Shown here piece after piece: positions 27,216 through 41,225 of a stretch of DNA of 41,225 bases (positions are counted from its first letter, which is position 1; the number at the start of each line of letters is the position of its first letter). Under the pieces are notes generated by a model. That model saw nothing but the letters and a program-made list of their open reading frames with translations. It made no database searches and was not told the DNA's origin. Made by a program: the position numbers and the translations under genes. The stretch spans positions 1 through 41,225 of IMG/VR virus record IMGVR_UViG_3300036713_000359. One strand, written 5' to 3'. This DNA comes from a virus (Duplodnaviria > Caudoviricetes).

Positions 27216-27940
27216 TATCAAAAACAGAAATTACCTTGTTTGGAAGCACCTTTTTATTCGTATTTGGAGCGATGACACTTTATAGCGAGTACAAACAAGT
27301 GAGACCGGATTACACCATAACGCTAACCGAGAAAGTGCATTATCCACCCGTGATGCCACCGTTATTCATCCCGGCAGCACCGCAACCACTGAAGGCGCAG
27401 CCTGCCGTATTAAAACCGGCACCGTCAAAAGTGACCTACAGCGCGCAGGATGATTCCATTTTTTGGGACAAAATGCACCAGATCGAAAGCCTGGGCGGGA
27501 TGCTTAAATACCAGGGCGATGATAAGGATTGTAAAACAACCCGACGCTACTGCGGACATTTCCAGATCGGCTATGAAGCGCTTAAAGATATCAATTGCAC
27601 CAGCGCGCAATGCAAGGCGGACCGTGATGATTATGATAAATCACTGGCGATGGCGAAGCAGATACTAAAAAAGAAGCTGGCGCGGTTTGAGGTTGCTGAA
27701 AACTGGCTTAAATATACGTTGTACCAGCAAGGTGCCAACGGATTGAAAGAAGTCCACAGGGCGGCAAAAGGCCAGGTAAAGCTCTCAAAAGCAGCGCTTA
27801 AACGGCTGGCACGGAATAGCATGTACACCGTCCGCGAATTAAAGATGCTGGGCAGTAAAAAAGCGGCTAAAAGCTATCTGAATGAGTGGAAAAAGCGCTG
27901 GGATGATGCCGGATCGCTAAAAATTGCGAGTGGTGAATGA
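27212..27940 (+). CDS. Membrane-anchored lysozyme-fold protein
   Basis: TM helix, Pro-rich linker, QIES.G catalytic Glu motif, CGHFQI. Confidence 0.6.
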   Translation: MISKTEITLFGSTFLFVFGAMTLYSEYKQVRPDYTITLTEKVHYPPVMPPLFIPAAPQPLKAQPAVLKPAPSKVTYSAQDDSIFWDKMHQIESLGGMLKYQGDDKDCKTTRRYCGHFQIGYEALKDINCTSAQCKADRDDYDKSLAMAKQILKKKLARFEVAENWLKYTLYQQGANGLKEVHRAAKGQVKLSKAALKRLARNSMYTVRELKMLGSKKAAKSYLNEWKKRWDDAGSLKIASGE

Positions 27941-28589
27941 TATGTCGGATTTTAAATACTTCACCCGCGCCGAATTCAAAAAACTGACCGCCACCATCCG
28001 GCGTAATAAAACCATTGAAGCGAGGCGCGATTTAAACTGGATCAGTATTATGCGTTATACCGGCATCCGCCTGTGCGTGATGCGCCAGTTTACCCTGGAA
28101 GATGCTCAGAACTGCATCGCCAAAGGGCGTTTTATCGCAAGGGCTGAAACCAATAAGGGCGGGGTTCGCAAAGACCTTACAGTGCGGAAATCAAAAGCGG
28201 TGGATATGCTACTCACTGAAAAAGTCAAAGAAGCGCTGATTGACCTGATCGACATGCGCCGCGAATACAAGGCGATTCATTCAAGTCCTGAGTTGATTTT
28301 GTCGCGGATTGGCAAGGGTTTATCCGCCAGGAGTTACCAGGACAGGCTGGACCAGTGGAAAACCATTGCCGGGCTTAAACATTGCGAGGGTGTGAGTGTC
28401 CACGGTTTGCGCCATACCTACGCCATGATGTGGCTGGAATCATCGAGCAATGTACTGGGTTCGGAGCTGAAAGCCTTGCGGCAGTTAAGCAAAAACATGA
28501 ACCACAGTTCGATTAATTCAACTTTGATCTACCTCGATGCACTGAGCAAAGACCAGGTGGAACTGTGCGAACAGGCGGCGGCATTGTGA
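27924..28589 (+). CDS. Minimal tyrosine recombinase, catalytic domain only (start probably 27942)
   Basis: TGIR, HGLRH, NH and LIY catalytic set. Confidence 0.85.
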   Translation: MRVVNDMSDFKYFTRAEFKKLTATIRRNKTIEARRDLNWISIMRYTGIRLCVMRQFTLEDAQNCIAKGRFIARAETNKGGVRKDLTVRKSKAVDMLLTEKVKEALIDLIDMRREYKAIHSSPELILSRIGKGLSARSYQDRLDQWKTIAGLKHCEGVSVHGLRHTYAMMWLESSSNVLGSELKALRQLSKNMNHSSINSTLIYLDALSKDQVELCEQAAAL

Positions 28590-33409: not shown

Positions 33410-33606
33410 GCATGTTGACGATTGAAGAAATAGCCATAAAACACACAGCCCGGCTGGCTGATGAAGAATCTGATTATTCAGAATTTGATAAACTGGATGT
33501 AAGCAAGAAAGAAAGGCAGCTGCAGGCACGGCGCAGGGTGGAAGACGACCTGGAACGGAAACGCCTGGTGCGTGAAAATTTGGATGTTTGGGATCAGGAT
33601 TTTTAG
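33406..33606 (+). CDS. Small charged hypothetical protein
   Basis: Coupled ORF, RRRVEDDLERKRL. Confidence 0.6.
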   Translation: MSMLTIEEIAIKHTARLADEESDYSEFDKLDVSKKERQLQARRRVEDDLERKRLVRENLDVWDQDF

Positions 33607-33656
33607 AATGTTTTAATATCTAAAGTTGAAAACTTATTAACAGGAGATAAGCAAAA

Positions 33657-33830
33657 ATGAAAGAATGTAATTGTTCGAATAAAAAACTAATGGTTCAAGA
33701 GTACACCTATTGTGAACTTCAGCAGATTGAAAAAAGAAGAGCTGCTTTAGTGCAGGATAAATTGAACCGGATAAACAGAGATAGAGCGGCTGGGATTGAT
33801 AGAGCGGTTGATGGGGCTCGGTTGATATAA
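33657..33830 (+). CDS. 57-aa hypothetical protein whose stop lies in the first attC-like core (not in the ORF track)
   Basis: AGGAG RBS, MKECNCSNKK...GARLI, stop TAA within ATATAAC. Confidence 0.65.
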   Translation: MKECNCSNKKLMVQEYTYCELQQIEKRRAALVQDKLNRINRDRAAGIDRAVDGARLI

Positions 33831-33891
33831 CCCTTGCATTAGCAGGCAATGAAGCCCTGCGGAATTGCTCTGCTGGAGCGTGTTGTTAGCC
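33825..33891 (-). repeat. attC-like site 1
   Basis: ATATAAC...GTTAGCC; stem TAGCAG-GCAAT/ATTGC-T-CTGCTG with an unpaired T. Confidence 0.75.
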
Positions 33892-33911
33892 ACAAAAAAG
33901 AGAGATTTATT

Positions 33912-34247
33912 ATGAGTTACGAACGAGATTCAGATAAGGCAATGGGCAAGAAATTAAGTGTATATCCACAGCCAGTTAAATTATATGCAGAGCGCGATGT
34001 TATAGCGCAAAAAGAATATTACACAAAGCATGTAGACCACATGACATGTGAAGGGCTGCACAGTAAATCCGATATTGCCGCAGAATTAGCGCACAGAGAT
34101 ATTATAATTGATGAATTGAAAAGCGCGGCAGGCATGGCATTAGGTAGTTTAACAGGTGGTATGGATGGAACATGGGACGCTTTTGATGACCCGATTGAAG
34201 CGCTAAGAGAAGCACTAAATAAAACTGATGCGCGTAGCGCTGGCTAA
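33912..34247 (+). CDS. Cassette gene 1: phage protein with MTCEGLHSKSDIAAELAHRD motif
   Basis: Bounded by GTTAGCC and GGCTAAC; stop lies in the core site. Confidence 0.8.
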   Translation: MSYERDSDKAMGKKLSVYPQPVKLYAERDVIAQKEYYTKHVDHMTCEGLHSKSDIAAELAHRDIIIDELKSAAGMALGSLTGGMDGTWDAFDDPIEALREALNKTDARSAG

Positions 34248-34325
34248 CCCTGAGATAATCAGGCGCAATAAAATGCGCGAATAAAAACCCTGACAATGCC
34301 GCTCTGATTGAGCGCGTTGTTATAC
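34242..34325 (-). repeat. attC-like site 2
   Basis: GGCTAAC...GTTATAC; GATAATCAG-GC/GC-T-CTGATT-G-AGC with extrahelical T and G. Confidence 0.8.
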
Positions 34326-34344
34326 GTGTATTGAGTAATAAATA

Positions 34345-34434
34345 ATGGAAGAACTTCTAATAGGCGGACTGATAATATATTTTATAGTTGCGGTTATTCT
34401 CGTAATTGTTATAAATGAAGAGAGAAGAAATTAA
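34345..34434 (+). CDS. Cassette 2 gene a: 29-aa single-TM peptide (not in the ORF track)
   Basis: MEELLIGGLIIYFIVAVILVIVINEERRN; stops 1 bp before the next ATG. Confidence 0.5.
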   Translation: MEELLIGGLIIYFIVAVILVIVINEERRN

Positions 34435-34435
34435 C

Positions 34436-34666
34436 ATGAGCACAACGGAGTTTAAAAAGTATTTGAATGAAGTAATAAAAACAGTTTTCAAAAATGAAGA
34501 TAAATTTATAGAGGCTTTTGCTGAAGTTATCGGTGGCGCTGAAAATATAGAAGAATTCTATATGGCTAGTGAGAGGTGCAGGATTGTCACAACGACACAT
34601 GATGGAATTAGAACAACAACTACAATTAATACAACGGCTGTTTTAGATTGGATCGAAGCAGTATAA
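34436..34666 (+). CDS. Cassette 2 gene b: acidic hypothetical protein
   Basis: Stop TAA lies within the GTATAAC core. Confidence 0.7.
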   Translation: MSTTEFKKYLNEVIKTVFKNEDKFIEAFAEVIGGAENIEEFYMASERCRIVTTTHDGIRTTTTINTTAVLDWIEAV

Positions 34667-34722
34667 CCTGAAAGCTCAGCGGAACGAGCGAAGCGAGATT
34701 CCGATGGGGCTAGTTGTTAGGT
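34661..34722 (-). repeat. attC-like site 3
   Basis: GTATAAC...GTTAGGT; GCTCAGCGGAA/TTCCGATGGGGC; loop GAGCGAAGCGAG. Confidence 0.8.
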
Positions 34723-34773
34723 AATATTTTAAGCACACCCTGCCACTTTTAGGCACTTTTTAAGGATTAAAAA

Positions 34774-35103
34774 ATGAATTTATTAGCAAAAAACAATGAA
34801 ATGATTCAAGAGGCAAAGGCTAGAAACAAAGAAGACCCTAGCAAAACAACACACGAACATTTAACTGAAATAGAAAAAAGAGAGTTTAATAATAGAAATT
34901 ATGTAGGCAAAGGAAGGCAGGACCCTCTTTATCAAGAAGCAATAGATACCGTTAAAAAAGAACAAAGAGCAAGTATTTCTATGCTCCAAAGAAAATTAAA
35001 AGTTAGCTATACCAGATGCAATGAAATGGTTATAGCAATGCAAGAAGATGGAGTAGTAAGTGACTTTCAGTCAAATATGACTAGAAGCGTATTAGTTAAG
35101 TAA
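34774..35103 (+). CDS. Cassette gene 3: stand-alone FtsK gamma (winged-helix) domain protein
   Basis: DPLYQEA...RASISMLQRKLKVSYTR...GVVS....R.VL. Confidence 0.85.
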   Translation: MNLLAKNNEMIQEAKARNKEDPSKTTHEHLTEIEKREFNNRNYVGKGRQDPLYQEAIDTVKKEQRASISMLQRKLKVSYTRCNEMVIAMQEDGVVSDFQSNMTRSVLVK

Positions 35104-35123
35104 GCGATAGAACTGCAAGTTCT

Positions 35124-35184
35124 ACCTAACGTTAAAGCATCTTATCTGTTTGCCGCAGGCATACAGATAAGTGTCTTGTTGGAC
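35124..35184 (-). repeat. attC-like site 4 (atypical)
   Basis: ACCTAAC...GTTGGAC; stem CTTATCTGT/ACAGATAAG; CC-GCA-GG tip. Confidence 0.65.
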
Positions 35185-35444
35185 TTAGCCGCCTGGCACG
35201 GTGGTCGATACCCATCTATATAAGGGGATTGTATTTTGAAAGCCCGTTTGGTCAATATCACTTTGTCGTATTTTCGGCAGTAACAGCCCATCCATTGCCT
35301 AGTTTGACATCTTTTTTTGATTTATTGACATCGTTTATTGGCCCAACAATAGCACAAATATAGGTTAATTCCAGTCTTTGCCCAGCCACTATCCTGACGC
35401 TTTAGCATCACGTTATTATGATTTGTCAGCCTCGGTAACGTTCG

Positions 35445-36587
35445 TCATCCGCCTTCAAGGCGCTGTGGTTTTATCAGGGTGCTAATGAACATGATGGCTT
35501 TTTTACAGCAGGGACAGGGTAACCCTTCAAAACGCTCTGGTTGCGGGTTTGTTTTCTCACCAGTCGTTTCTTTCGGGTCGGCTTTACCCTGTGTGATAGC
35601 CGCCCTGACCAGGGGCAGTTTTTTTGCTCTGCTAGCATTGGCAAGCCAGCCAAAGTGGCGTACCCGCATAAAACCTTTCGGTAACACGTGTTGCAAAAAA
35701 CGCCGCAGAAACTCTGTTCCTGTCAGCGTCATCACCTTTTTCTGATTATCACTATAATCCCGGTAGTAGAAGCTGACCTGCTTCTGATCCATATGACTCA
35801 AGCGGCTATCAGACAGTGCAATGCGGTGGGTATATCGCCCCAGGTAGTCAACAACACTACGGGTATGGTGTAAACAAGGCTTGGCAAAGACCACCCACGG
35901 AGTTTGCATTAAACTGTCCAGTAGGGTATCCACTTCATGAGGGCGGGTAACTCGCGTCAGTTTGCCCTGATTGGCGGCTTCACGCAGTGCACTGACCATT
36001 TTTCCTCGAAAGACCTTCGACAGGGCTCTAACCGGAAACAGGTAAGTACTTTTAGCCTCATTCCATTCACCCGCGCGGCTAAGTGCTCCACCGGGGATCA
36101 GGCAATGTAGGTGAACATGCTGGTCCAGTGCCTGTCCCCAGGTATGCAATACAGCGCTCATGCCCAATCCGCCATTCAGATGTTTCGGGTCTTTAGCAAA
36201 GGCGGACAGTGTTTGCCATACACAGGCAAAGAACAGACCATAAATCACCCGTGGGTGCAGCCTGATCCAGCCATTGAGTGCGTGTGGCAGTGTAAATACC
36301 AGATGATAATAAGTGATCGGTAACAGATAACTCGCCTGTTTGTCACACCACTGTTGGGTAGCCTGTTGCTGGCAGCGGGTGCAATGCCGATTACGGCAGG
36401 CATGATACAGTGTGGTTTCATTCCCACAGTGTCCGCAGTGTAACGTAAATCCACCCAGTGCCTCAGTACGGCATTGCTGTAAATGACGACAAACCGTCAG
36501 TTGCTGGTGGCTCAGTGCCTGTTGCTGTTGTAATGCGGGTAAAAACTGCGTCAGTACCTGTTGCAGCCGCAGACTAGACATGGTCAT
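35445..36587 (-). CDS. IS91-family rolling-circle (Y2 HUH) transposase
   Basis: Zn-binding CRT..LGG...CRNRHC, HLVFTLP, HVHLH (HUH), YLGRY; start 36587 or 36581 overlaps the recombinase stop. Confidence 0.93.
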   Translation of the reverse strand: MTMSSLRLQQVLTQFLPALQQQQALSHQQLTVCRHLQQCRTEALGGFTLHCGHCGNETTLYHACRNRHCTRCQQQATQQWCDKQASYLLPITYYHLVFTLPHALNGWIRLHPRVIYGLFFACVWQTLSAFAKDPKHLNGGLGMSAVLHTWGQALDQHVHLHCLIPGGALSRAGEWNEAKSTYLFPVRALSKVFRGKMVSALREAANQGKLTRVTRPHEVDTLLDSLMQTPWVVFAKPCLHHTRSVVDYLGRYTHRIALSDSRLSHMDQKQVSFYYRDYSDNQKKVMTLTGTEFLRRFLQHVLPKGFMRVRHFGWLANASRAKKLPLVRAAITQGKADPKETTGEKTNPQPERFEGLPCPCCKKAIMFISTLIKPQRLEGG

Positions 36588-37431
36588 CAAGCGACAGTTC
36601 ACCCAGTAGATCAACCACACGACCACCTTCACCCGTTTGCGGTAACCAGTGCGTATAGCGCAAAGTAGAATGTAGATTTTGATGTCCCAACTGTTGTTGT
36701 AACTGATGGATGGGTACGCCCTGTTGCAGGCAATGGGTCGCATAGGCATGGCGCAGACTGTGGATGCCCCCTGATTTACGGATATTTACCGCTTCTTTGG
36801 CGTGTCGGAATACTTTCTGTGGTGTTGTAACACCGATATGTGAACCTGGTTTGTTTCCACAGAATAGGAAGCCCTGTGGACGATAGCGAACCCAGTAACG
36901 TCGCAAATGTAGCAGCAGGGTTTCACCAATAGGTACCAGCCTGTCTTTACCTCCCTTTCCCTGAGTCACCCTCAATAATTTTTGTTGCCCGTCAATATCC
37001 ACCACAGCGACACGCACCAACTCATTGACGCGCAGACCACAGCCGTAGCACAGTTTCAACAACATGCGGTCACGTGTGCTGGCGGGTGCAGATACGATGC
37101 TTGCAACTTCTGAAAAATTCAAAAGCGCGGGTATTTGCTGACGGTTTTTGGGCAGGATAAAACCGTAGTTGGCGAAATCCTTGCGTTTAAGGACACGGAT
37201 AAACAGAAAACTGACGCTGTTGAAATACAGCCGAATGCTGGCAGGTGCCAGTTGTCGCTCCTTAACCAGATATAAAAGCCACTGTTCAATCTGTTTTAGA
37301 GACAGATGATCAGGAGGCTGTCGGGTGTAACGAGCTAAGTCTTGAACTCCAGACAAATAGGTAGTCTGTGTCCGTTGTGCTAAACCATGCAGTAGCATGG
37401 TATCAATCATTTGTTGACGTAGATGCTTCAT
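36574..37431 (-). CDS. Tyrosine recombinase associated with the IS91-like transposase
   Basis: YGCGLR, GKGGKDR, HSLRHAYATH, LGH, LRY; AAGGAG RBS. Confidence 0.93.
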   Translation of the reverse strand: MKHLRQQMIDTMLLHGLAQRTQTTYLSGVQDLARYTRQPPDHLSLKQIEQWLLYLVKERQLAPASIRLYFNSVSFLFIRVLKRKDFANYGFILPKNRQQIPALLNFSEVASIVSAPASTRDRMLLKLCYGCGLRVNELVRVAVVDIDGQQKLLRVTQGKGGKDRLVPIGETLLLHLRRYWVRYRPQGFLFCGNKPGSHIGVTTPQKVFRHAKEAVNIRKSGGIHSLRHAYATHCLQQGVPIHQLQQQLGHQNLHSTLRYTHWLPQTGEGGRVVDLLGELSLDDHV

Positions 37432-37550
37432 TTTAAATCTCCTTTGAGTAATAGAAACTCCCTATGGAGTCACTCAAAGTGTGGTTCAAAATGTAGAAGT
37501 TGGAGCTGGGAAAGGAGCGTGAAAGTAGCAAAGCTCCGCGAAGCGGCTTA

Positions 37551-37623
37551 GTTCAACACTTTATTAGACAGCGTAGGATATAACAGAAATAGACAGCGTA
37601 GGATATAACAGAAATATACAGCG
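37551..37623 (-). other. attI-like site with 25-bp tandem direct repeats
   Basis: Minus strand reads GTCTAAT-AAAGT-GTTGAAC (7-5-7); TAGACAGCGTAGGATATAACAGAAA at 37565-37589 and 37590-37614, plus a partial third copy. Confidence 0.6.
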
Positions 37624-37699
37624 GCATTTATCTGCAGTTGTGAATCTTCAATTCATTTACTCGTAGCGCACTGCATAGTCTTGCTTTAAAGTCCGCGCA

Positions 37700-38770
37700 A
37701 TGGGAAGAAATTCAAAAGACGGGATCTATTTACCCGCTGGCCGTGTTGTTTGGTATTGCCGATTCACTGATTCTAAAGGTAAAAAAGCACGTTTATCAAC
37801 CGGTGAAAAGAACGAGAAAAAAGCACAGTTAGTCTGTTTGCAGATGATGCAAAAAGCCGATGCCGGCGAGCTTTCCCTGGAAGCTGAAAATATTACACTT
37901 CCACAGGTTTTGAACCTTTATTTTTCTGGCTATGGTGACAACCTTAAAAGCAGGGGATATCTATACGCCAGGGATAACCTGCTAAAATTCTTCAAAAATA
38001 AAAAATGGAGAGATATCTGTAAGCAGAATGGTAAAAACGTACTCAATTATATTAAAACACGCCAGAAGAAGGTGAAACCGGACACTATTAATAAAGAGTT
38101 GGGCTTATTGTCTGCAGCTGCTAATTATGTGCGCCAGCAGCAGGGAATCATGGTTGTTAATCCGGTACCAGGGAAAAAGCTGAAGGTTAAACGCTTTCAA
38201 TATTCTTGGATCACCGTTGAACAAGCTGAAAACCTGATTGATAAAGCAAAGACTTTGGATAAAGCACCTTACCTCGCTGATTACATCATTATTTCACTCA
38301 GTACCGGAATGCGCTTGAGTGAGGTACTGACCATTAAAAAATCATTTATCGATTTGAATAAAGGTTTTATCTATCTACCTACCACAAAATCAGATCAACC
38401 GCATGAAGTGCCAATGAGTGATCAAGTAAAAGACTCGGTTAAAAACCTGCTGAAAATGAGCCATAAAAAATCTGTGTGGCTTTTTACCCATGAAAATGGG
38501 GAACGCATTAAAAGCATACGCCGTGGATTTAAAACAGCCTGTGAAAAAGCGGGGATTGCAACCACAGACAGGAAAAAAGGAATACAGGGATTCAGGATAC
38601 ATGACCAGCGCCACACTGTAGCCAGTTGGTTAGTATCAAGCGGAACACCACTGGCAGACGTTCAGGATCTGTTAAATCATGAAAATATTCGCACAACAGA
38701 ACGCTATGCGCACCTGGCTCCTGAAAACCGTATCAAAACAGTAAAATCACTCCCAAAACTGACAAAGTAA
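37700..38770 (+). CDS. int: Phage integrase (tyrosine recombinase with arm-binding N-terminus)
   Basis: WYCRFTD...STG N-domain; TGMR, TKS, HDQRH, LNH, RY; adjacent to attP. Confidence 0.92.
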   Translation: MGRNSKDGIYLPAGRVVWYCRFTDSKGKKARLSTGEKNEKKAQLVCLQMMQKADAGELSLEAENITLPQVLNLYFSGYGDNLKSRGYLYARDNLLKFFKNKKWRDICKQNGKNVLNYIKTRQKKVKPDTINKELGLLSAAANYVRQQQGIMVVNPVPGKKLKVKRFQYSWITVEQAENLIDKAKTLDKAPYLADYIIISLSTGMRLSEVLTIKKSFIDLNKGFIYLPTTKSDQPHEVPMSDQVKDSVKNLLKMSHKKSVWLFTHENGERIKSIRRGFKTACEKAGIATTDRKKGIQGFRIHDQRHTVASWLVSSGTPLADVQDLLNHENIRTTERYAHLAPENRIKTVKSLPKLTK

Positions 38771-38796: not shown

Positions 38797-39047
38797 TGTG
38801 CTTTTATTGTGCTTATATCCGCACACATTACCTTATTTAAGCACATTACCATCCACCTAAATAATTGATTAACTTCAAAATTTAACACAAGCCGCTCCCC
38901 TGCTAAGGGAGTATACGGTTTATCCCGTATCGAGGGTTCGAATCCCTCCTTCTCCGCCATCTATAAGGCTTTCAGCCTTTCCATTAAATCCTTATCTATT
39001 CCATAAATACAGAGTGTGCCTTTATCTGTGCTTTTACTGTGCTTTTA
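38797..39047 (+). other. attP region with arm-type repeats TGTGCTTTTA
   Basis: Copies at 38797 and 38808 (left) and at 39015, 39027 and 39038 (right), around a tRNA fragment; IHF-like site at 39077-39090. Confidence 0.8.
38893..38959 (+). other. attP core: 3' portion of tRNA-Ser(GCU)
   Basis: Anticodon arm CTCCC-CTGCTAA-GGGAG, long variable arm, GGTTCGAATCC, CCA end; the 5' acceptor strand and D-arm are absent. Confidence 0.9.
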
Positions 39048-39456: not shown

Positions 39457-40485
39457 TTGGTGGTTTTTATGAGTGGTGATCATGATATTTTGGCGAGCTA
39501 TTTATACTATTTGGAGCATGACCTGGACCGTGCTCAAAATACCAGTTCCACTTATCGTTTGTTTTTGGTTCGGTTTATTGATTTTTTGGAGAGTAAGAAC
39601 AGCCATATTTTAGAATGTGGGTCGAATCTTGTTTTTGAGTATGCTGAGATAGAATCGCATCGAAAGGAATTAAGCAGAGCCAGCCGCCATCCTTTGGTTG
39701 CTGCATTGAAAAGTTTTTTTAAGTGGCTTCATTTTAAAAATTACCGTGATGATAATCCAGCGAAATCATTGAAGTATCCGAAGAAGGGCCGGAAGCTTCC
39801 TATACCTATGACCAACGAAAATGCAGAACGGTTGATGTTGAAGATACCGCTTGATACGTTAAAAGGTGTTCGTGATGCGGCCATTATCGCTATGTTTTTA
39901 GGTACGGGTATGCGCCTGGGTGGGTTGGTTGGGTTGAATGAATCCAGTCTGAGCGTGATCGAGGTGGATGGGGACAAGCGATTTATTGTCAAATCATTAG
40001 AGAAAGGCAACAAAGAGCACCTGAAACCTTTACCGAATAGTGTGGTGCTGTATCTGAAAGCTTATCTATCTCACCCGGATCTTGATGCTATCGACCGCAA
40101 GTTACCCAATGGGGATAAAGTTTTATTCATTTCTACAACTAATACGACGGTATCACCTGAAGATTATTATGGCGAGACCAGGCGATTATGCGAACGATCT
40201 GTACAAAGAATGATGGAGGTGTACGGTAATAAGGCTGGAATTCCACGCAATCAATGTCATCCACACGCCTTGCGCCATTCATTCGCTACTGAATTAGTCG
40301 AGGATAACGTGGATTTAAAGCACGTCCAGTCTTTACTAGGCCATGCCAATCTTAATACAACCGCTATTTATATTACTGTTGCCATCAGAAAGACGCTGGC
40401 CATTGTTGATAAGTCTTCACCGATTGCAAAGATCAACACACCCGTAACAGACCTGGCTGGAATCATGGCCGCAAGCGGGCTTTGA
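39457..40485 (+). CDS. XerC/XerD-like tyrosine recombinase (start probably 39469)
   Basis: SAM-like N-domain, NPA...PK..RKLP, RD.AI, TGMR, KGNKE, HPHALRHSFAT, LLGH, IY. Confidence 0.9.
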   Translation: MVVFMSGDHDILASYLYYLEHDLDRAQNTSSTYRLFLVRFIDFLESKNSHILECGSNLVFEYAEIESHRKELSRASRHPLVAALKSFFKWLHFKNYRDDNPAKSLKYPKKGRKLPIPMTNENAERLMLKIPLDTLKGVRDAAIIAMFLGTGMRLGGLVGLNESSLSVIEVDGDKRFIVKSLEKGNKEHLKPLPNSVVLYLKAYLSHPDLDAIDRKLPNGDKVLFISTTNTTVSPEDYYGETRRLCERSVQRMMEVYGNKAGIPRNQCHPHALRHSFATELVEDNVDLKHVQSLLGHANLNTTAIYITVAIRKTLAIVDKSSPIAKINTPVTDLAGIMAASGL

Positions 40486-40777: not shown

Positions 40778-41225
40778 GTGGGTACCAGTACATCTGCATG
40801 AGTTTAAAGTTTTAATGTGTTAAAATTTTCGAAAAATTAACAAATAAGCTATAAGCATCAATTAAATGCAAAAGCTCCTATTTTTCAGCGATGGAAACAG
40901 GGGCTTTTTTTTGGACGGTAAAAATTGGCAGAGAATAAAACATTAGCGTTTAAATGCGATCAGTGCTCGGAAAAATTCCGCACGGACGATTATGTGCGCA
41001 TTGACCTGCCTTCACGTGACTTCCATCCTTATGATTACCTGGCTACTTGCCCGAACTGCAAGCACGAGGGGGTTGAGGTTGAACAATGGCAGATCAACCT
41101 GTTTAAAGCCTGGTCTAATGCCACAGGCCCAAAAAATACGGATCTATCCCGCTTTAATGCGATCACCCACGGCCTGACGGCGGAAGTCGCGCAGGCCCAT
41201 CCTGCCCGGCCAGGCGGATATGATG
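40778..41225. repeat. Terminal direct repeat, copy 2, containing the 5' part of a variant terminase small subunit gene (TTG at 40925)
   Basis: Offset of 40777 bp from copy 1. Confidence 0.97.

Follow-up and report, generated by a model that had tools for sequence, protein, structure and literature searches.

The systems closest to the locus described here have been found in phages. Clusters of attC sites that have no integron-integrase (CALINs) were reported from phage genomes by Qi, Rajabal, Ghaly, Tetu and Gillings in 2023 (17 CALINs in 10,705 genomes, including that of TJE1; PMC9892861), with the Shewanella prophage M16-3 carrying a CALIN that has its own attI, and with five of the six phage attC sites tested recombining with the integron integrase IntI1. 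Integron integrases (IntI) acting in trans have been described to insert cassettes at G|TT sites away from the integron, and small CALINs have been proposed to arise by such insertion (Loot et al., bioRxiv 10.1101/2022.09.11.507474). Here we analyse a cassette array in the virus record IMGVR_UViG_3300036713_000359, a single record whose entire 41,225-bp stretch is called the window in what follows. Its four attC sites and attI-type docking site form a real CALIN with an attI-type site and not a complete integron, with at least two attC sites within 3 kb and no IntI nearby, as in the definition of PMC9892861. Phage CALINs are already known, one of them with an attI; what is notable here is that cassettes are present in reversed orientation, and that an IS91-family element is docked at the phage attI. 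We consider it probable that a temperate phage here carries an integron platform without an integrase, and that a host IntI, supplied in trans, placed the cassettes in its docking site one after another.

With the published phage CALINs the window shares an attC cluster without IntI and an array that is headed by an attI, and the Shewanella attI as printed in PMC9892861 ends in an L/R core very similar to the docking site of the window. M16-3 encodes IntI, whereas the window does not. Moreover, every covariance-model match in TJE1 and M16-3, the two of the paper's 21 phages that were compared for polarity, lies on the strand of the neighbouring genes, which is the canonical arrangement, whereas the small genes of the window are reversed. 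Complete integrons (class 1 and gammaproteobacterial chromosomal) have attC anatomy and the chain of complementary cores in common with the window, as well as a 7-5-7 L/R site with two direct repeats, and an attI family that includes the attI of one genome in our sample, G103. They differ in possessing intI, in the place of which the window has a phage integrase, and in that genes of the window are antisense to the attC top strand. The insertions described by Loot et al., which lead to single attC sites lacking integron-integrases (SALINs), involve a centred attG, whereas the docking site of the window is one-sided, with L and R boxes and direct repeats, and belongs to an intI-associated family. 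No publication on reversed-gene phage arrays was found in a search outside of which most subscription journals lay.

The original prediction, made from the sequence letters alone, had described four attC-like palindromes, a chain of complementary cores and stop codons within TAAC, all of which are present. All four sites lie on the minus strand, at 33825..33891 (s1, 67 bp), 34242..34325 (s2, 84 bp), 34661..34722 (s3, 62 bp) and 35124..35184 (s4, 61 bp, atypical). The covariance-model search proposed at the time was carried out with a home-built model, which was derived from 44 attC sites picked by a rule-based scanner in arrays beside intI in gammaproteobacterial genomes, has 89% of its cells paired and gives rough E-values only; it replaced a loose, unspecific hairpin scan (133 candidates) and an insensitive second scanner. 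The window yielded 8 matches at E<=5, of which the top four are s1 to s4 at their exact coordinates (12.7 bits, E 0.57; 22.9 bits; 23.8 bits; and 14.2 bits, E 0.25, respectively), the fifth-best scoring 10.4 bits. The rule-based scanner found three sites in 33600-35500, compared to none in 295 and one in 5 of 300 dinucleotide shuffles. All four sites possess the invariant AAC and GTT in their R'' and R' cores, and s1, s2 and s3 feature an L''/L' stem with an extrahelical base and spacers of 5 nt and 5-6 nt. In s4 the L'-R' spacer is non-canonical, with 10 nt rather than 5-6 nt before the crossover core.

The two cores inside one site agree with each other at only 4-5 of 7 positions. Complementary cores are found at both ends of each of the four units: GTTAGCC/GGCTAAC, GTTATAC/GTATAAC and GTTAGGT/ACCTAAC match at 7/7 positions and GTTGGAC/GTTCAAC, with GTTCAAC at 37551, at 6/7 (P about 9e-4 for the chain against a null made up of bacterial-array cores). 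The units had been predicted to be bounded at these cores, and the crossover points delimit, all on the minus strand, cassette 1 (33831..34247, 417 bp, most distant from the docking site), cassette 2 (34248..34666, 419 bp, 35% GC), cassette 3 (34667..35129, 463 bp, 35% GC) and cassette 4 (35130..37556, 2,427 bp, adjoining the docking site), the last of which recurs with the same ends in other contexts. The stop codons of the open reading frames (ORFs) at 33657-33830, 33912-34247 and 34415-34666 fall within TAAC cores, and that of the gene in cassette 3 sits 26 nt before a core.

On the plus strand of s1 to s3 the arm with the extrahelical G lies at the right, as it does in the bottom strand of aadA7 that the supplement of PMC9892861 shows. 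This identifies the plus strand as the bottom one and assigns every attC to its right-hand unit, s1 to cassette 1, s2 to cassette 2 and s3 to cassette 3, from which it follows that the three small genes run against their attC sites and in the same direction as the early operon. An ORF on the attC top strand is absent from cassettes 1 to 3 and present in cassette 4, which has canonical polarity. When applied to 20 regions next to bacterial intI, the scanner assigned polarity correctly to 67 of its 70 hits. The opposite assignment, with attC sites on the plus strand, is ruled out by the position of the extrahelical-G arm, by the covariance model and by a contig from sequencing run X4 (see below). 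Reversal is not confined to the window: among 28 linked units in viral contigs, 16 are reversed, 5 canonical and 7 ambiguous with respect to the strands of ORF and attC, in a set that is biased because it was chosen with a pattern derived from s2 and includes the window's own three units, and with longest-ORF calls that are crude for short units. Bacterial arrays gave 0 reversed, 31 canonical and 8 ambiguous units among 39. Unlinked neighbour pairs were dropped from this tally (6/34 viral and 3/42 bacterial), and two links in locus L004 that it scored as absent were read directly from the L004 sequence. The minus-strand polarity, and with it the reversal of the small genes, had escaped the original prediction, as had the IS91 identity of the fourth unit.

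The small genes themselves were correctly foreseen for cassettes 1 to 3, whereas the fourth unit is a 2.4-kb IS91 element. Cassette 1 encodes a 111-aa phage protein (33912..34247, plus strand; phrog_34533, E 3e-12) whose frame is already open from an ATG at 33849 inside s1, and part of which is matched by 136 phage records. The gene of cassette 2, for a protein of 77-83 aa (34415..34666, plus strand; phrog_15603, E 7e-5), had no match in phage records, and cassette 3 encodes a 109-aa protein with an FtsK-gamma winged-helix domain (34774..35103, plus strand; PF09397, 66.9 bits). All three genes are reversed relative to attC. The scan for promoters found 6 promoter-like sites versus 8.3 in shuffles, such that promoter and terminator scanning stayed near chance level. 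Reversed genes are not readable from the attI side, and therefore a cassette promoter (Pc) would not read cassettes 1 to 3. Reversal would instead let promoterless genes be read by early-operon transcription arriving from the left, without Pc. A modular accessory region had been placed, rightly, at the end of the early operon. To the left of the array, a 57-aa ORF (33657..33830, plus strand), the stop codon of which forms the leftmost crossover, had no family match and no covariance-model attC match on its left; it is a flanking gene, not shown to be a cassette. Short GATAGAGCGG repeats occur within this ORF at 33780-33825, just left of the first crossover.

Cassette 4, in which s4 forms one end, is an IS91-family element with its own tyrosine recombinase. 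It carries, on the minus strand, genes for a 378-aa IS91-family Y2 rolling-circle transposase (35445..36581; NF033538, 434.7 bits versus a cut-off of 125; PF04986 and PF14319) and for a 285-aa tyrosine recombinase (36574..37431; PF13495 and PF00589) with an IntI-type N-terminal domain, whose best PDB match is IntI4 (2a3v). IS91 family members have oriIS and terIS ends and a tetranucleotide target; the outer boundaries of this element are G|TT cores. It is also the one cassette among the four that was found elsewhere as the same unit with the same ends. A contig of run X4, from an independent study, matches 35127-37558 with 6 substitutions, corresponding to s4 plus the IS91 element, continues with 115 unlike letters past the left core and stops one letter beyond the right boundary; run X3 shows a third left context and a contig of run X6 likewise begins at 35127, so that the left boundary lies at 35127-35128 in all three runs. 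The contexts in X4 and X3 therefore fix both the extent of the unit and its minus polarity. In X4, the 30 letters left of the core read as a ribosome-binding site and ATG on the minus strand, which suggests a conventional next cassette.

Twelve loci with relatives of the element, from two plasmids and five of 400 genomes, all begin at G|TTGAAC, and an attC-like hairpin with a long spacer (9-10 nt) ends seven of the eight relatives with enough flanking sequence. The odd spacer of s4 and the 6/7 link are therefore family traits. Judged by eye, the targets of these relatives comprise 4 attI-type sites, 2 attC ends and 6 dispersed G|TT sites, the latter being copies in a single genome, G273. On the Thiodictyon plasmid pTs485, a complete integron has one relative as its second cassette, and another relative occupies a near-copy of the intI-adjacent attI of its genome. 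The element-start pattern gave 121 loci, with an element of this kind in only one contig, and a GTDB scan with the element's recombinase gave 3 distant loci. ISShvi3 also has an upstream recombinase. A published IS91-family insertion sequence (IS) located beside attC in an array likewise has a Y2 transposase above the NCBIfam cut-off; as described there it is treated as an IS beside attC, whereas here the attC-like end is part of the element and conserved in its relatives, and the element sits at a phage attI. No publication was found in which IS91 elements that carry a recombinase home to attI, with most subscription journals and ISfinder outside the search.

Two further features of the element were noted. 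A CAATCCCCTTATATAG-like motif at 35216-35231 (minus strand), about 45 bp inside the attC-like end, was seen by eye in all eight relatives with enough flanking sequence; we take it to resemble the IS91/ISCR oriIS, and it may represent the rolling-circle nick site. The element ends at 35178-35195 and 37540-37557 lengthen the R-box stem by about 8 bp, a property kept in most relatives, and the stem at a circle junction would therefore exceed that of ordinary attC sites.

The docking site (37551..37625, minus strand) consists of an L box GTCTAAT, a 5-nt spacer and an R core, with the crossover between 37557 and 37556. Direct repeats GTTATAT lie 27 and 52 nt upstream (-27 and -52), compared to GTTA at -32 and -51 in attI1, and the site has no hairpin and no covariance-model match. 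It closely resembles the attI beside intI in G103, which heads a canonical array in this one genome. The attI proposed beside the array in the original prediction is thus supported as an attI-like site. The site also resembles the one that holds the element on a Thiothrix plasmid. We regard it as a putative attI acceptor, a view supported indirectly by the position of the IS91 boundary at its core. The leftmost core of the array, GTTATAT, is identical to the two repeats of the docking site, as is to be expected if the array grew inside this site. Four other phage contigs (L327, L341, L371 and L420) each contain a unit that terminates in the 15-nt core of the docking site and has an exactly complementary core, and three of them have a model-supported attC. 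A docking-site pattern gave 120 loci, 80 of which were scored by the covariance model, with matches in 4.

The window encodes four tyrosine recombinases, none of which is IntI, as had been anticipated. In addition to that of the IS91 element, these are the phage integrase (37700..38770, plus strand; phrog_1, E 4e-62), which diverges from the array where intI would sit; a 221-aa protein in the early operon (27924-28589) with the catalytic domain only, lacking the N-terminal SAM-like domain; and a XerC-like recombinase (39457-40485) beyond a tRNA-like att fragment and inside the circle. The idea that the XerC-like gene lies in host DNA outside a prophage is ruled out by a 448-bp terminal repeat. 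The characteristic insertion of IntI reads the extrahelical bases of attC, and alignment found this insertion in none of the four proteins. The three that were scanned with TIGR02249 scored far below the cut-off of 265 bits (155 for the element recombinase, 42.8 for the phage integrase and 89.1). IntI was also absent from five phages other than G002 that bear arrays or the site; only one of them has a tyrosine recombinase at all, and the three rated 99-100% complete have none. Together with G002, four phages with arrays or the site that CheckV rates 99-100% complete (G002, G404, G407 and G408) thus show no tyrosine recombinase. Of the two loaders first considered, a host integrase is the likelier. 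The own-recombinase branch is not supported, as the phage's own four recombinases lack the IntI insertion, one of them belongs to the IS91 element, and the four near-complete array-bearing phages show no tyrosine recombinase. The reading that fits best is a host IntI that acts in trans, since IntI is common in the likely host class (present in 103 of 301 sampled gammaproteobacterial genomes), IntI1 accepts phage attC sites, and insertion of cassettes by IntI also occurs away from integrons. Under this reading each cassette would have arrived as a circle that recombined at G|TT, in the order 1, 2, 3 and then the IS91 element, which would have reached the docking site through its attC-like end by the action of a host IntI or of its own recombinase.

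The platform is recurrent but patchy and not lineage-wide, because two related phages have arrays and the other primase or integrase loci searched gave no covariance-model match. Of the phages retrieved, G002 is the most closely related (primase 50% identical). Its array follows the primase and apparently continues at the beginning of the contig; it features different genes with the same polarity as in the window, five exact links and a similar end site. This phage (loci L004, L118 and L119) is P2-like and rated 100% complete, with a tRNA-like att fragment and no tyrosine recombinase, and one of its reversed cassettes encodes a protein of the PAPS-reductase family with its ATG inside the core. 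In a phage with a 37%-identical primase (L080:5940-7870), an array of canonical polarity directly follows the primase. At the locus with a 60%-identical integrase (L106), no array or attI-like site occurs in the 1,179 bp upstream. When IMG/VR was scanned with single proteins, neither the integrase nor the primase gave matches, and an integrase alignment gave only distant viral matches, with one close metagenome locus among 8. The s2-derived pattern gave 121 viral loci (104 distinct), mostly chance occurrences, 10 of which passed the scanner; 21 loci picked by eye went to the covariance model.

Several observations weigh against insertion of single cassettes at an attI by a host integrase. No cognate host IntI was identified, and no close relative differs from the window phage by one cassette. 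The covariance model had 0 matches in 77 other primase loci (1.03 Mb, default filters) and none in L006 or L106, and the array of L080, at the same position, is canonical. The L/R motif occurs in only 3 of 22 other intI-upstream regions, two of these being attC ends, and the exact 16-nt docking core in 2 of 401 genomes. Sites s1 and s4 are individually weak by score, and the minimum-energy fold of s2 is not that of an attC (-15.3 kcal/mol versus -5.5 kcal/mol when constrained to the attC fold). The bias of the viral polarity set belongs here as well. Circle or excision joints at cores were absent from the Logan contigs of runs X1-X4 and X6, but such contigs drop rare variants, and this absence carries no weight either way.

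A small but real chance remains that the activity comes from the recombinase of the IS91 element, or from an IntI-like recombinase of another phage. The Y2 enzyme would then make a single-stranded circle whose ends fold into the atypical attC, the recombinase would insert this circle at G|TT, and it might also move cassettes 1 to 3. The IntI-type N-terminal domain and the IntI4 match are in keeping with such a role, as are the common start of all twelve relatives and the long-spacer attC as a family trait; the six dispersed copies in G273, at G|TT or G|AT sites in a genome with only a partial IntI match, are readily accommodated too. However, this recombinase lacks the IntI insertion, four array-bearing phages have no recombinase, and the element, as the newest unit, cannot have loaded cassettes 1 to 3 in cis. 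Even the dispersed copies can be explained by IntI alone, which inserts at GWT sites genome-wide (bioRxiv 10.1101/2022.09.11.507474). It is tempting to speculate further that phages keep a reversed-cassette pool of their own at attI sites common with host integrons, and that the IS91 element is a self-mobile cassette, for which the rolling-circle enzyme makes a single-stranded circle and the IntI-like recombinase, without the IntI insertion, integrates it at attI. This composite proposal is a long shot in our estimation; if true, the docked element would give an integrase-less phage array a shuffling enzyme of its own and bridge the phage and bacterial cassette pools.

It is also unlikely that attI and cassettes 1 to 3 were acquired once as a block by ordinary recombination, from another phage or a host integron, and have been largely static since, with the IS91 element arriving later. 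Near relatives without the site and the degraded appearance of s1 and s2 would fit such an event, and block capture from chromosomal integrons has been documented in Vibrio phages (PMC9892861). Yet the leftmost core equals the GTTATAT repeats of the docking site, as if the array had grown in place, use of the docking site is evident from the IS91 element lying exactly at the crossover, and a bacterial source sits poorly with the lack of reversed genes among the 39 linked units of bacterial arrays.

We think it very improbable that one of the three remaining recombinases, encoded at 37700-38770, 27924 or 39457, is the dedicated integrase of the array. The gene for the first of these begins 75 bp from the docking site and, like intI, is directed away from it, and a short insertion is seen in the 39457 protein in the region of the long one of IntI; but all three are far below the IntI cut-off or non-IntI by alignment, the first adjoins the tRNA-like att fragment and has a 60%-identical relative without the site, and G002, which bears an array, lacks homologues of all four recombinases of the window. 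A chimeric assembly or palindromes arising by chance are hardly credible given the model ranks, the shuffles and the pieces of run X2, which span the junction of s1 with the backbone as well as s2, s4 and the docking site, even though the terminal repeat has mismatches, the source sample holds two alleles of 37590-37729, and neither 34703-34705 nor 35389-35391 is bridged among the X2 pieces listed.

If loading by a host IntI is correct, the locus represents a compact case, open to testing, in which phages use the integron system for accessory genes without the cost of an integrase of their own. A reversed cassette would be read by early transcription in the phage and stay unread from Pc in a host integron, and reversal could in this way hold phage and host gene pools apart despite common sites and a common enzyme. 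Units do cross between the pools, since the same 2.4-kb element is present here and in conventional arrays. The recombinase of such two-gene IS91 elements can now be tested on a defined attC-like end and a defined attI.

The phage genome itself bears a terminal repeat of 448 bp (1-448 and 40778-41225), because of which the window is likely a circular temperate phage genome; the 15 mismatches between the two copies suggest that the two ends stem from sister phage variants. Profile searches recognised tail genes, CI, CII, a 914-aa toprim primase and the integrase. The best-matching sequencing runs are sediment metagenomes, and named homologues point to Gammaproteobacteria as the likely host class. 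ARAGORN found no whole tRNA in the window. A 3' tRNA fragment follows the integrase at about 38880-38960 and matches many host tRNA contigs in every run compared; it is likely the attP, and by our reading of its letters would derive from tRNA-Ser.

Two minor observations concern small units elsewhere. A 21-nt motif with a small palindrome directly before the core is near-identical in 35103-35123 and L004:14727-14748, in unrelated cassettes whose proteins do not align, and had no further occurrence in IMG/VR. In G103, three solitary attI-like sites (L558-L560; L554-L556:1501) each hold the same unit of about 300 bp without an ORF, 98-100% identical between sites with differing flanks; with its internal repeat and attC-like end, this unit looks like a cassette in the style of a miniature inverted-repeat transposable element (MITE).

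The bridging X2 pieces come from what is likely the source sample and are not independent. In this sample the two alleles of 37590-37729 show 0 and 10 differences (runs X1-X3, stretch 37532-37729), and an additional contig has other letters left of 37532 and shares only the first 26 bp of the element. The second allele and this deviating contig possibly reflect a sister phage in which a different IS91-type element occupies this site.

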